Assembly: GCA_964560005.1 (NCBI GenBank)
Contig: CAZLKB010000003.1
Span: 174,951 to 238,950, forward strand
DNA length: 64,000 nt
Source: an uncultured Gammaproteobacteria bacterium
GTDB lineage: Bacteria > Patescibacteriota > Patescibacteriia > Patescibacteriales > GWC2-42-12
Reading direction: 5' to 3'
Made by a program: the position numbers and the translations under genes. Below are positions 32,240-40,317 of this stretch, piece after piece (the first letter of the stretch is position 1; every line of letters starts with the position of its first letter). A model generated the notes under the pieces. It ran no database searches and was not told the DNA's origin. It saw only the letters and a program-made list of their open reading frames with translations.

Positions 32240-32677
32240 TTATTCCAAATTTTTTAATTTCCTCCACCTCTTCACCGCCTTGGTTCTGGCCAATTCCCGC
32301 TCGAGCGACGCATTAATTTCCGCGAAATTCACTTTCTCGCCAGATCTGGCCTGCTTTTTCAGTTCTTCGGCGCGGCTCCGGCCGGCTTCGGCGCGAGCCA
32401 GGTCTATTTCTTCGGCACGTTCAGCGATATCGGCTAAAATTACCACCTTGTCTTTCTGCACTTCTAAAAAGCCGCCGGAAATTGAGATGATTTCGTCGGT
32501 GCCGTCTTTCTTTTTAATCTGAACCACGCCCGGCATTAAACTGGACACTAAGGGAATATGATTGGGCAAGACCGTAATCTCTCCCATCTTAGTCGGCAGG
32601 GTGATTTGCGAAATCTCCTCTTTTAAGATAATACGTTCTGGTGTGACAATCTCAAATTTTATGAAATTATTGCTCAT
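32240..32677 (-). CDS. atpC: ATP synthase F1 epsilon subunit
   Basis: FKFEIVTPERI start typical of epsilon; last gene of the atp cluster; start moved to Met11. Confidence 0.9.
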   Translation of the reverse strand: MSNNFIKFEIVTPERIILKEEISQITLPTKMGEITVLPNHIPLVSSLMPGVVQIKKKDGTDEIISISGGFLEVQKDKVVILADIAERAEEIDLARAEAGRSRAEELKKQARSGEKVNFAEINASLERELARTKAVKRWRKLKNLE

Positions 32678-32702
32678 TTTTGTTATTTTATAATTTTCCT
32701 TA

Positions 32703-32776
32703 CCCACAAATCTACAAATCGGCTACGAATATTACGAATATTTGTATTATTTGTAGCAAATTCGTAGATTTGTGGG
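32703..32776. repeat. 74-bp palindromic dyad upstream of atpC; a second copy lies upstream of typA
   Basis: cccacaaatctac...gtagatttgtggg; the 20-mer tacaaatcggctacgaatat is identical at 56269-56288. Confidence 0.85.
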
Positions 32777-32787
32777 TTGGTAATAAT

Positions 32788-34194
32788 TTATTTAGCCCCA
32801 ACCTCGCTAATATCCCCTTTCATATAAAAATCTCCTTCGCTCTTATCGTCGTGCCGGCCGTCTAAAATTTCCCTAAAGCCGCGGATCGTATCGGTTAGTT
32901 TTACATATTTGCCCTTTGTGCCGGTAAAAGTTTCGGCCACAGAGAAAGGCTGGGATAGGAATCTCTGTATTTTTCTGGCGCGAGCCACGGTTACTTTATC
33001 CTCATCCGACAATTCTTCCATGCCGAGAATGGCAATGATGTCCTGTAAATCCTTATATCTTTGCAATACTTTCTGTATGCGCCTGGCTACTTCGTAATGA
33101 TCCTGACCCACGATTTTCGGATCTAAAATTACGGAGGAAGAATCCAGCGGGTCTACCGCCGGATAGATGCCTAGCTCGGTCAGTCCGCGCGACAAAACCA
33201 CGGTTGAATCCAAATGGCCGAAAGTCGTGGCCGGAGCCGGATCGGTTAAGTCGTCGGCCGGCACATAGACCGCCTGAATTGAGGTAATGGAACCTTTATC
33301 GGTTGAGGTGATGCGTTCCTGCAGTTCACCCATTTCCGTAGCCAGGGTCGGCTGGTACCCGACTGCCGAAGGCATGCGTCCGAGCAAGACCGAGACTTCG
33401 GAGCCGGCCTGAGTAAATCTAAAAATATTATCTATAAACAACAAAACATCTTTATTTTTTTCATCGCGGAAATATTCGGCGATCGCCAGGCCGGATAAAG
33501 CGACGCGGGCGCGCGCTCCCGGCGGTTCATTCATCTGGCCGAAGACCATGGCCAGCTTATCAATTACCTTGGCCGATTTCATTTCATTATAAAGGTCATT
33601 GCCTTCGCGGGTTCTTTCGCCTACGCCGGCGAATACCGAAACGCCGCCATGCGCCTTGGCGATATTATTGATTAATTCCTGAATAACCACGGTCTTACCC
33701 ACGCCAGCGCCGCCGAATAGCCCGACTTTGCCGCCTTTTAAAATCGGGCAGATCAGATCAATAACCTTAATGCCGGTTTCCAGAATTTCGGTCTTAGTGG
33801 ATTGGTCTACGAATTTCGGCGCCGGCCGATGAATCGGATATCTCTTGGCTGTTTTAGCTTCCGGCTGGCCGTCTACCGCTTCGCCCAAGACATTAAAAAT
33901 TCTGCCTAAAGTTTCATCTCCTACCGGCACGGTAATGTTTGCGCCGGTATTAATGGCTTTGTCGCCTCGTCTTAATCCATCGGTCGGACCCATGGCCACG
34001 GTTCTTACCACTCCGGCGCCTAAGTGCTGTTGAGTTTCTAAAACCAGCTTCTTGCCGTGGTTATCGATTTCCAAAGCCGTATAGATATCCGGCAAATCGC
34101 CCTCAAAATAAACATCCACGACCGCGCCGATGATTTGCTTAATCGTCCCGGTTGTCTTAACGGGTGTTTCAATTTTAGTTTGTTTTTCTGGCAT
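32788..34194 (-). CDS. atpD: ATP synthase F1 beta subunit
   Basis: Walker [23 protein letters not shown], typical beta C-terminus. Confidence 0.98.
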
Positions 34195-34316
34195 ATTATT
34201 ACAATAATTTTTAATTTTTAATTTAAAATTTTAAATGAATTTTTAATGATTTAAATATTAAAAATTCAATCAAAATTCAAAATTCATAAATCAAAATTTT
34301 TTAATTTTTAATTATC
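34195..34316. repeat. AT-rich word dyad (GAATTTT / AAAATTC family)
   Basis: aaatgaatttttaatg ... aaaattcaatcaaaattcaaaattcat. Confidence 0.6.
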
Positions 34317-34383
34317 TGTCATTCCCGCGAAAGCGGCCTGTTTTCCTCTTCTGCGCCGAGGTCAGCACCGAGGAGTAATCCAG
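34317..34383. repeat. TGTCAT-type element, extended form (left end of the atpG-atpD insert)
   Basis: tgtcattcccgcgaaagcgg...gcgccgaggtcagcaccgaggagtaatccag. Confidence 0.7.
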
Positions 34384-34407
34384 AAATTCCATACCTTCGA
34401 CGAGAGA

Positions 34408-34436
34408 TTGACTAATTATTAATTATATAATATATT
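34408..34436 (+). promoter_or_regulatory. Promoter antisense to the atp operon
   Basis: TTGACT - 17 nt - TATATT. Confidence 0.55.
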
Positions 34437-38597: not shown

Positions 38598-38790
38598 AAT
38601 GAATAATGTAAAATGTAAATCTCAAAATGAAAAATGCTAGCTCCGCTAACACCCCGCAGATGCGGGGTCATTGCAGAGCAATGACAATGAAAAATTCAAA
38701 ATGAATTAATAATTTTACATTTTTAATTGTCATTTTTAGATTTACATTTTCAACTTTACATTTTTAATAATCTCACCCCTGCCCCAGCCA
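38598..38790. repeat. 220-bp spacer: TGTAAAAT word dyad enclosing GC-rich hairpins
   Basis: ccccgcagatgcgggg (38653-38668) and gtcattgcagagcaatgac (38667-38685), flanked by tgtaaaatgtaaat / atttacatttt words. Confidence 0.7.
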
Positions 38791-38817
38791 ACTAAGCGGG
38801 AGCAGTGCGTAAAACTA

Positions 38818-39030
38818 CTAGCTGATGCTGAACGCGATGACCAAGGCGTAAATCGCGATGGCTTCGGCAAAGGCCGCGCCGATCAGCATGGTGACCAGGA
38901 TTTTACCGGATGCTTCCGGGTTGCGGCCGACCGCTTCCACGGCTCTGGCGCCGATCAAACCAACGCCCAAGCCCGGACCGATCGCGCCCAAGCCGATAGC
39001 TAAAGCTTTAGCTAACATAACTGTGTCCAT
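38818..39030 (-). CDS. atpE: ATP synthase Fo subunit c
   Basis: 70-aa hairpin of two TM helices, GRNPE loop, Glu in helix 2 (AFAEAIAIY). Confidence 0.93.
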
Positions 39031-39064
39031 AAATTAGAAATTAGAAATTAGAAATTAGAAATTT
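39031..39064. repeat. Tandem heptamer (AGAAATT) x4-5 directly upstream of the atpE start
   Basis: aaattagaaattagaaattagaaattagaaattt. Confidence 0.9.
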
Positions 39065-39140
39065 GGGAATGTTAAATTTATGCTCAAACGCTAATTTATA
39101 ATCCTAATATTTTTAATATATTTTTAATTTGTTAAAATCC

Positions 39141-39992
39141 CTAGTGTTCTTCTACTGTCGCCATCATTGTTAAATAAGTCAGGATCAGCATGGCGAAGAT
39201 CAAGGCCTGAATCACGCCGACCATAACTTCCAAAAACATAAAAGGTATGGGTAAGCCGAAAGCCAGGATAGCGGCCATGGAAGCGACTAAGACTTCGCCG
39301 GCGAAAATATTGCCGAAAAGCCTGAATGACAGACTGGCGATTTTGGCTAATTCACTGATAATTTCCAGCAAACCGACGAAAAACTTAATCGGATTGACTA
39401 TTAACACCGCTGGATCCTTAAATACTTTCTTGGGAATTTCAATCAAGGCCTTCAAATTGATAAACTTATTAGAATAATTCCAGAGGCCGATCGCGACCAT
39501 GCCGAAGATATGGCTGGCGGCCACGCCGATAATAGCCAGGGCAAAAGTGGTATTCAGGTCGGCCGTGCCGCCTCGAAAAAATGGAATAAACAGCTTTCCG
39601 CCATGCTCGGAAACTACCTGGCCGATGGAGCCGATGCCGGGCAACAGCCCCAGCCAATTATTAAGCAATATAAAAATAAAAAAACTAAAGACAAAAGGAA
39701 AAAATTTTAAAGATCTCTGGCGCGAACCGGTTACCGAATCAAATGTATCTAGAAGCATTTCCATAACCGCCTCTAGAATATTCTGCAAGCGGCCCGGAAT
39801 CAGTTTGACTTTTTTTCTAAAATATAACCCAAAAATCACTACCGCGAAAACGACCAGCCAGGTATTAAGCAAGGAGTTAGTAATAGAAAAATTGCCGACT
39901 TGATAAATTTGCTCGGCGTATAGAGTATGATGTTCCTGAATCTGCGTTTGCGCCGAACTAGCTTCAGTGTTCAGTTGTTCGGTAGTTTGCAT
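39141..39992 (-). CDS. atpB: ATP synthase Fo subunit a
   Basis: Polytopic; conserved Arg helix LSFRLFGNIFAGE. Confidence 0.93.
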   Translation of the reverse strand: MQTTEQLNTEASSAQTQIQEHHTLYAEQIYQVGNFSITNSLLNTWLVVFAVVIFGLYFRKKVKLIPGRLQNILEAVMEMLLDTFDSVTGSRQRSLKFFPFVFSFFIFILLNNWLGLLPGIGSIGQVVSEHGGKLFIPFFRGGTADLNTTFALAIIGVAASHIFGMVAIGLWNYSNKFINLKALIEIPKKVFKDPAVLIVNPIKFFVGLLEIISELAKIASLSFRLFGNIFAGEVLVASMAAILAFGLPIPFMFLEVMVGVIQALIFAMLILTYLTMMATVEEH

Positions 39993-40005
39993 AATATAAA
40001 TTAAA

Positions 40006-40317
40006 TTAATTTTTTGGCTCTCCGGTTCTATCCTTGCCTAGATTATCCGGCTTAACAAATTTTTTTAATTCTCGGCTGGTGCTTCTAATCAAGCCGATCA
40101 TGGAAATAATAAAGGCTATGCCAATACTGGAAAGAAATAGCCAAGGCTCGGTCTGATATTTCTCGTCCAGCCATTTTCCCAGATACATGGCAATGATAAC
40201 CGGCGCGGTAATCCAGACTGATAATTTCAAAAACATCATTATGGCCGGCTGCCACCAAGCCGTTTTATCTTGGTTCTTTGGCACATTTCTCCCTTTTAAA
40301 TCACCTACTCCGTCCAT
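40006..40317 (-). CDS. Small membrane protein, AtpI/AtpZ-like, first gene of the atp cluster
   Basis: 103 aa, two TM helices, 13 bp upstream of atpB. Confidence 0.5.
   Translation of the reverse strand: MDGVGDLKGRNVPKNQDKTAWWQPAIMMFLKLSVWITAPVIIAMYLGKWLDEKYQTEPWLFLSSIGIAFIISMIGLIRSTSRELKKFVKPDNLGKDRTGEPKN

Follow-up and report, generated by a model that had tools for sequence, protein, structure and literature searches.

The window analysed here, a 64-kb stretch of DNA assigned to a Patescibacteria (Candidatus Falkowbacteria-like) chromosome, encodes on its minus strand (32240–40317) an ATP synthase operon with long gaps between its genes. The intergenic space has likely been colonised by families of short palindromic repeats, and most of the atp spacers would be dispersed, fast-turnover copies that are not specific to the atp genes. 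The elements are dispersed genome-wide in this window, turn over rapidly among relatives, and show no bias toward the transcribed strand. A first-pass annotation of this DNA had proposed segmental mRNA processing or stability control, internal promoters or terminators, or simply very permissive repeat expansion; the last is the best supported for most spacers on these grounds, the corresponding junctions of relatives being empty or holding a replacement.

The operon comprises nine open reading frames (ORFs) in the order atpI-B-E-F-H-A-G-D-C, all on one strand and all with Pfam matches above the curated cut-offs, which bears out the nine gene identities and their order as first proposed. From I-B to D-C the gaps are 13, 110, 220, 86, 104, 87, 742, and 110 bp, and the earlier values of 13 to 742 bp are recovered exactly from the ORF coordinates (the D-C gap is 80 bp if atpC begins at a GTG at 32707). 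In E. coli K-12, with the identical order, they are 8, 46, 61, 14, 12, 50, 26, and 20 bp, so that the spacers sum to 1472 bp in the window operon versus 237 bp in E. coli.

Two main repeat classes are found. The first is AT-rich: one arm is a run of an imperfect 7-nt word (TTTTCAA, AAAATGT, CGTAACN, and TTTGTAA, among others), and the opposite arm is its complement. Lag-7 autocorrelation falls from 0.46 in the atp spacers to 0.365 in the remaining intergenic DNA and 0.25 in coding sequence, and period-7 arrays detected by Tandem Repeats Finder (TRF) are scattered over the entire window. The second class is a GC-rich unit with the form TGTC, an 8-bp stem starting with AT, a loop (mostly CTTGA), the returning stem, and C. 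These units mostly occur as inverted doublets (TGTCAT...ATGACA), as at 35878/35946, 34824/34891, 49188/49257, and 54345/54412, and are sometimes nested in larger mosaics. The window has 13 TGTC units, and 53 were counted in 1.33 Mb, with none in 62 of the 81 sources. Their stems vary between copies yet remain complementary, with an 8-bp stem in 41 of the 53 and a 3' flanking C in 45. All of the TGTC units that were placed on the gene map lie in intergenic spacers.

Every atp spacer element has related copies elsewhere in the window, and copies also lie in gaps between divergent genes and ahead of unrelated ones. Operon features are on the minus strand unless stated otherwise, and fold z-scores are based on 200 dinucleotide-preserving shuffles per spacer or element. 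The D-C spacer contains a 33-pair hairpin of CAAATCT/ACGAAT words (32700–32780; minimum free energy (MFE) -41 kcal/mol, z -9.47), a second copy of which, 82.6% identical over 92 nt with the loop included, lies at 56254–56345, upstream of the BipA gene. The A-G spacer is a TGTCAT...ATGACA doublet (35878–35946; MFE -27.9 kcal/mol, z -4.34) made of two units of TGTC, 8-bp stem, and CTTGA loop, with copies at 54345–54412 (82.6%), 34824–34890, and 49188–49258. In the H-A spacer a TTTTGAA-word hairpin fills the gap (37519–37620; MFE -22.8 kcal/mol, z -3.95) and is 75–79% identical to 34205–34300, the AT-rich hairpin of the G-D gap. The distal part of the E-F spacer (38598–38745; MFE -47.2 kcal/mol, z -7.05) is a nested mosaic in which an AAAATGT-word hairpin surrounds a TGTCAT-type palindrome and a GC hairpin; related copies are found at 18938–19063, 27188–27319, and 30624–30739.

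Two spacers do not fold. The F-H spacer (38023–38108; z +0.61) is one arm of a TTTTCAA-word element and forms no hairpin, with matches at 41656–41719, 18032–18161, 16493–16578, and 50735–50866. The B-E spacer (39031–39140; z -0.15) is A/U-rich and unstructured, with direct word repeats only, including a perfect heptamer tandem directly before the atpE ATG (39031–39063; TRF period 7, 4.7 copies, 100% match). It could serve as an A/U-rich leader for Shine-Dalgarno (SD)-independent translation of the abundant c subunit. Its homologue in L006 also ends in a heptamer tandem before the atpE ATG, with AATTTTC as the word where the window has AATTTCT. The heptamer tandem and the TGTCAT composites (35878–35946 and 34823–34891) had been correctly recognised in the first pass. 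Its statement that a long hairpin brackets each cistron was too broad: when the spacers are folded, the D-C, A-G, H-A, and E-F spacers and the G-D doublet beat their shuffles, while B-E, F-H, and the AT-rich element of the G-D gap (z -1.86) do not stand out in this way.

Spacer lengths were compared across 80 related loci (labelled L001, L002, etc.), as had been suggested, and the junctions do range from compact to heavily expanded. The gaps of the compact operon L045 are 15, 64, 63, 4, 21, 2, 14, and 3 bp, a profile like that of E. coli, while those of the expanded L002 operon are 249, 103, 136, 152, 110, 175, 945, and 197 bp. In compact relatives, as in E. coli (46 and 61 bp), B-E and E-F are the widest gaps. 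In close relatives (82–88% AtpA identity), junctions that are filled in the window are often 1–13 nt long or hold unrelated elements of the same two classes. The F-H, A-G, and D-C junctions are all this short in L003, L019, and L026; the genes at F-H overlap or are a single nucleotide apart in L003, L004, L006, L019, and L026, H-A is 9–16 nt in L004 and L006, and D-C is 6–13 nt in L003–L006, L019, and L026. Across loci, the operon spacer sum correlates with the mean flanking intergenic length (Spearman 0.51, p = 1.6e-4, n = 50).

The repeats also enter genes. A variable loop of atpA contains an in-frame insertion, CGCGAATGAA x2.7 (37295–37351; TRF 37315–37341), of 12 residues after MMSEMLE. 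The same loop has 0–36 extra residues in relatives (noted in L005, L009–L011, L013, L020, and L054), and the inserts include AAATCCG heptamer tandems in L011 and L013 and a 129-nt hairpin (-62.7 kcal/mol) in L054. In-frame heptamer-word tracts are also present in the PrmC/HemK methyltransferase gene (699–1631, plus strand), at 1017–1046, 1267–1295, and 1458–1485, where they encode LIAHNSQLVT, VIHDSLFMIH, and LCVMRYALRD.

The special status that the first-pass annotation implied for the operon was not borne out. Flanking intergenic regions are equally long (median gap 126 nt, n = 44, vs ~107 nt in the operon) and equally structured, with nearly all of the listed window intergenic regions of at least 80 nt having z-scores of -2 to -10. 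Among 28 co-directional intergenic regions of the window, the sense strand has the lower MFE in 13 and the antisense strand in 15 (Wilcoxon p = 0.72), and selection at the RNA level on all hairpins was rejected for want of an overall sense/antisense asymmetry.

A third repeat class, consisting of long hairpins of 100–220 nt, was observed at 11034–11256 and 58560–58763 of the window, in the atpI-atpB gap of L002, and in the atpH-atpA gap of L003 and L026. Its core motifs are TTTTTCGCTGCGGA... / ...CTCGCTTCAAAAA, and CTCTACGGC; region 10804–11247 has a z-score of -10.4.

Based on these observations, the elements would have inserted into, or expanded at, nearly all junctions of an ancestrally compact atp operon, one of them in frame in an atpA surface loop, while gene order and promoter stayed intact. 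Such repeats would be put up with at any site where no gene is disrupted. Most would be carried passively in the mRNA, because sense-strand terminators are absent: no operon spacer contains a canonical intrinsic terminator (GC stem and U-tract) on the sense strand. Once transcribed, long stems could incidentally act as exonuclease barriers or as RNase III targets.

Several points weigh against this explanation. Three elements (H-A, E-F, and the AT-rich hairpin of the G-D gap) are 10–21 kcal/mol more stable on the sense strand, which would fit RNA-level selection there. No target-site duplication, donor element, or transposase was identified, and mobility is deduced from the dispersed copies and their presence or absence among relatives. 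No transposase or insertion sequence, and no RAYT/Y1 transposase gene, was found among the scanned proteins of the 64-kb window; inverted arms are present, and around the four TGTCAT doublets inspection by eye found no consistent target-site duplications. Similarity among low-complexity AT-rich words could stem partly from convergent slippage. Promoter-like sites are enriched (34 vs 17.8 +/- 4.3 in shuffles), so that internal promoters are possible, and the antisense ORF of the window, described below, has no homologue. Finally, co-transcription, processing, and the role of the hairpin after atpE are all inferred.

The AT-rich spacers might instead be immobile, having grown by local slippage of 7-nt words and inverted duplication, so that the likeness between loci reflects a shared mutational bias. 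Perfect tandem heptamers such as 39031–39063 (100% identity) look recent, the words differ between spacers, heptamer runs also occur within coding loops, and the failure to find a transposase or target-site duplications would be expected. However, complex copies share loops and arm order across unrelated loci, as between the D-C spacer and 56254–56345, and members of the AAAATGTAAAATGCAAAAATCAAAATGACA family occupy four sites in the window as well as the L001 H-A spacer. Slippage also leaves the GC-rich TGTC units unexplained, and we consider it an unlikely account.

A second alternative is that the hairpins are purpose-built, cutting the atp mRNA into segments of unequal stability through RNase III sites or exonuclease barriers and thereby setting subunit stoichiometry. 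In five of the seven long gaps folding is far stronger than in shuffles, the stems of the D-C and upstream hairpins (at least 30 pairs) are long enough for RNase III, and the sense-strand advantage of the E-F, H-A, and G-D AT-rich hairpins points in the same direction, as does the hairpin after atpE, which is truly conserved. Such roles have been reported or proposed for REP, STRR, and Correia elements (PMC2670836, PMC2649163). However, only the post-atpE hairpin is conserved in position, other junctions being empty or occupied by unrelated elements in close relatives; the same elements also lie between divergently oriented genes and ahead of unrelated ones; there is no overall sense bias; and B-E and F-H do not fold. 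This makes a general, purpose-built design improbable. Of the segmental stability control first suggested, the part concerning the post-atpE hairpin is supported (covariation, sense specificity, and presence in the window and 42 relatives), while the part concerning all other elements is not.

A broader variant is a system specific to Patescibacteria in which both repeat classes are spread by an enzyme that recognises hairpin DNA and serve the host as RNase III sites or as transcript boundaries that need no U-tract. We regard this as speculative and rather doubtful. If true, it would let a genome without SD sites tune each cistron of its essential operons, and the post-atpE hairpin and the antisense cassette would be the fixed, functional end of its spectrum.

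Even less probable is a splitting of the operon into single-gene transcription units, each AT-rich spacer providing a promoter and each hairpin a U-tract-independent terminator. Promoter-like hexamer pairs occur about twice as often as in shuffles, the genes lack Shine-Dalgarno sites and have A/T-rich sequence before every start codon, and strong promoter-like sites lie on both strands of the G-D gap. However, promoter-like matches are expected in AT-rich word-repeat DNA, and no sharp -10 peak occurs at a fixed distance upstream of 45 start codons, for which reason leaderless single-gene transcripts were also rejected. Canonical GC-stem and U-tract terminators are used elsewhere in the genome, at convergent gene ends (8068–8133, 24868–24921, and 47617–47718), and none is found on the sense strand within the operon. 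Compact relatives, moreover, keep overlapping or 1–5 nt junctions, as expected for co-transcription. Although low-complexity repeats can be mis-assembled, it is extremely unlikely that the spacers are artefacts of a metagenome-assembled genome, as atp junctions carry the same element classes in dozens of genomes that different studies assembled independently, and the reading frames on both sides are intact.

Set apart from the dispersed repeats is a two-tier RNA hairpin that starts at the atpE stop codon (38765–38820; MFE -29.9 kcal/mol, z -4.73) and has no U-tract. Nearly every relative has a post-atpE hairpin, even the most compact operons, whose E-F gap is seldom shorter than ~60 nt; in E. 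coli, the spacer between atpE and atpF forms no significant hairpin (z -0.83). When 26 sequences are aligned, compensatory changes are seen in 12 of 20 pairs, and at three positions G-U is the most frequent pair. The covariance model derived from this alignment has a single sense match, immediately 3' of atpE, in the window and in each of 42 relatives, with none elsewhere in 1.33 Mb. Sense matches score 50–68 bits vs 28–39 bits for reverse-strand echoes. In the model alignment 93% of cells are paired, 14 of 20 pairs show double changes, and none of 500 shuffles equals this; because the model alignment follows the structure, these values are biased in its favour. In addition, no region other than the E-F spacer has a clear stability advantage on the sense strand (-80.4 vs -59.6 kcal/mol). 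The hairpin is conserved and probably functional. It may act as a 3'-end barrier or stabiliser of the atpI-B-E segment, raising that segment relative to the genes that follow it, in keeping with the large number of c subunits that each complex requires.

The 742-bp atpG-atpD gap holds the other conserved feature. Along the minus strand it consists of a TGTCAT doublet, a degenerate TGTCAT-type element, an antisense unit, a composite element, and an AT-rich word hairpin. The doublet, the second in the operon, spans 34823–34891 (z -5.68). The composite element (34325–34405) is bounded by GTCA...TGAC, ends in a dRS3-like GCGGGAATGACA, and over 50 nt shares 90% identity with the L001 A-G spacer, a non-orthologous junction. 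The AT-rich heptamer-word hairpin lies just upstream of atpD (34209–34296, with arrays at 34205–34236 and 34270–34298) and is homologous to the H-A element.

On the plus strand, the antisense unit consists of a promoter-like site, TTGACT-17-TATATT (34408–34436; 10/12), which would drive it; a 65-aa orphan ORF (34509–34706) with AAGGA upstream, unlike 50 of the 51 other genes; and an intrinsic terminator (34729–34763) with an 11-bp stem including six GC pairs and a T7 tail. The terminator is the best terminator-like site in 32000–40800. Terminator-like sites number 15 vs 12.6 expected, and this is the only strong one, on the strand opposite to the operon. The ORF belongs to no Pfam family and has no homologue among 5.8e9 proteins (word index) or 1.84e9 representatives (phmmer), and the antisense transcript may be non-coding instead. 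A minus-strand promoter-like site, TTGATA-17-TATATT (34457–34429; 10/12), overlaps the antisense promoter and could drive atpDC. The proposal of internal promoters or terminators thus finds a basis in the G-D gap, where the best promoter-terminator pair is antisense and the candidate atpDC promoter overlaps it, and in none of the other spacers.

About 17 relatives have a long G-D gap (340–945 bp), each with an antisense ORF of 65–112 aa, often hydrophobic, and with an antisense TTGACA-N17-TAtttT conserved 5–60 nt upstream of the atpD start. These ORFs are often preceded by AAGGAGG, unlike the SD-poor atp genes, and in nine relatives a short covarying stem (CAAGCC/GGCTTG, CAACCC/GGGTTG, or CAATCC/GGATTG) lies between antisense promoter and ORF. 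The ORFs themselves are mutually unrelated orphans; that of L010 matches only itself, and a Pfam search of ten gap ORFs from relatives found no family except for a GIY-YIG gene in L002. The antisense promoter and 5' untranslated region (UTR) of the window align with L002 and L021, and the terminator with its flank is conserved in L002, so that the window has promoter, 5' UTR, and terminator, and not the ORF, in common with L002. The cassette of antisense promoter, small ORF, and terminator is conserved and probably functional. The atpDC genes may be expressed at least partly as their own unit, resembling the separate beta-epsilon operon of cyanobacteria. In the G-D gap of L002, a 99-aa ORF of the GIY-YIG nuclease family (PF01541, E 2.7e-17) was observed on the sense strand, besides the antisense ORF.

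At the head of the operon, the promoter reported in the first pass was read again as TTGACT-N17-TATAAA (40539–40567) and is conserved: gTTGACt-N17-TATAAAa-AAGTGG occurs downstream of the TatD gene in L001–L004, L006, L026, L045, and L046. Between the TatD stop codon and the promoter is a CGTAACN heptamer-word hairpin (40565–40652; MFE -45.3 kcal/mol, z -9.92; period-7 arrays at 40578–40607 and 40626–40656), the 3' arm of which abuts the -35 element; related words occur at 12762–12813. Between the promoter and atpI, a leader hairpin of the form TTCAAGGAC-N6-GCCCTTGAA is followed by a T-run, TATTTTTTT (40426–40458). It matches L001 and L002 by blastn, and CAAGGAC...GYCCTTG with a T-run occurs upstream of atpI in at least 10 relatives, including L001–L004, L009, L010, L014, L020, and L022. 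Alone it folds weakly (-9 kcal/mol, z -1.0), and in form it looks like a terminator or attenuator. A GC-rich sequence of ~105 nt was observed to be inserted between this hairpin and atpI in the window. At the other end of the operon, a heptamer-word hairpin without a U-tract lies directly 3' of the atpC stop codon (32147–32239; MFE -23 kcal/mol, z -4.92).

The genes themselves are intact. They encode an AtpI/AtpZ-like protein of 103 aa (40006–40317; PF09527 ATPase_gene1, E 1.3e-9), subunit a (atpB, 39141–39992; PF00119 ATP-synt_A, E 7e-41), subunit c (atpE, 38818–39030; PF00137 ATP-synt_C, E 9.6e-19), subunit b (atpF, 38109–38597; PF00430 ATP-synt_B, E 2.1e-26), a short delta subunit of 133 aa (atpH, 37621–38022; PF00213, OSCP), alpha (atpA, 35954–37516; PF00006, PF00306, and PF02874), gamma (atpG, 34937–35866; PF00231, E 1.6e-89), beta (atpD, 32788–34194; PF00006, E 2.3e-74), and epsilon (atpC, 32240–32677; PF02823 and PF00401), for which the GTG mentioned above is a possible alternative start. 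The delta subunit is 132–135 aa long across the relatives, lacks the N-terminal part, and matches the OSCP profile only at positions 62–172. The nearest AtpA relatives (73–88% identity) are from metagenome-assembled Patescibacteria, many labelled Candidatus Falkowbacteria.

An SD-like motif precedes only one of 51 window genes, and the region from -17 to -1 is 85–90% A+T. The atp genes of all relatives likewise lack SD-like motifs irrespective of spacer load, and a link between SD loss and spacer growth was rejected (rho 0.10, p 0.45). At the gathering score, Rfam 15 identifies only a tRNA-Leu in the window; sub-threshold matches to plant and animal miRNAs and to sRNAs in the operon, obtained at permissive E-values, were rejected as generic long hairpins. 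A sub-threshold match to the T-box leader was observed at 10853–11009 on the minus strand (33.8 bits vs a gathering score of 93; E 7.6e-6 in a 551-nt search). It contains AAATTGGGTGGAACCACGAGG, has a terminator at its end, and has downstream of it the gene of a GNAT acetyltransferase and then that of threonyl-tRNA synthetase; it may be a divergent T-box of the candidate phyla radiation (CPR). Elsewhere in the window, an enzyme resembling pyruvate phosphate dikinase (PPDK) or phosphoenolpyruvate (PEP) synthase is encoded in two halves, the PEP-utilizers mobile domain at 42375–43445 and the PPDK_N ATP-binding domain at 47719–48657, which are separated by ~4 kb containing unrelated genes.

CPR bacteria are usually called streamlined; here ~1.5 kb of palindromic repeats are tolerated in the most conserved energy operon, and even within atpA. 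As compact and invaded operons coexist at 73–88% AtpA identity, this would be a concrete case in which the invasion of a reduced genome by repeats can be dated. Separating the passengers leaves two conserved features that can be tested, and the post-atpE hairpin may bear on c-ring stoichiometry. Spurious ORFs, false miRNA-like matches, and inflated calls of regulatory intergenic sequence are to be expected in the annotation of such genomes.

[quoted passage not shown] Literature queries on intergenic hairpins, MITEs, and transcript maps found no published description of such elements in CPR bacteria. Membership in the REP, STRR, dRS3, Correia, or Rickettsia palindromic element (RPE) families is not established, because the units lack the GTAG flank of REP, the words are not those of STRR, and no mobilising enzyme is known. 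REP elements stabilise upstream mRNA segments. Like REP, BIME, and REPIN elements, the TGTC units are short, extragenic, imperfect palindromes with a tetranucleotide flank that occur in many copies, as inverted doublets, and within operons. Unlike them, they are flanked by TGTC, not GTAG, and their stems diverge while the CTTGA loop and flanks persist.

The STRR of cyanobacteria are non-coding, hairpin-forming 7-bp repeats found between the hupS and hupL cistrons; their function is unknown, and roles in stability or coupling have been proposed (PMC2670836). An STRR is also reported within the cyanobacterial RNase P RNA gene. The AT-rich class resembles them in its period-7 signal, its hairpins, and its position between cistrons. 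It differs in that its words are AT-rich and are not STRR1–3, its host is a member of the Patescibacteria and not a heterocystous cyanobacterium, each locus has its own word variant forming a full palindrome, and the word type also enters protein-coding loops.

In Neisseria, dRS3 elements (ATTCCC-N8-GGGAAT) bound variable repeat segments in intergenic mosaics known as NIME (PMC1797815). Five units in relatives, ATTCCCGC-GAAA-GCGGGAAT, fit the dRS3 consensus exactly and bound mosaic segments; most window units, in contrast, have a 5-nt loop and other stems, such as ATTCCGGG-CTTGA-CCCGGAAT. Correia elements form long mRNA hairpins that are bound or cleaved by RNase III and can create promoters (PMC2649163), but the window elements have no sequence homology to them. 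RPEs are in-frame palindromic inserts in housekeeping genes of a reduced genome (PMC10969869). The in-frame word-repeat tracts of atpA and PrmC are similar in this respect; however, RPEs are ~150 bp long with a conserved peptide, while the atp and PrmC inserts are simple words or hairpins of 20–130 nt with no conserved peptide. TIGR-Tas arrays were set aside, as their anatomy is unrelated.

In cyanobacteria, the atp cluster is broken before the beta and epsilon genes. The window operon resembles the split atp clusters of cyanobacteria and chloroplasts in that its largest break also lies before atpDC, but here the break is filled by an antisense cassette and does not result from gene relocation.

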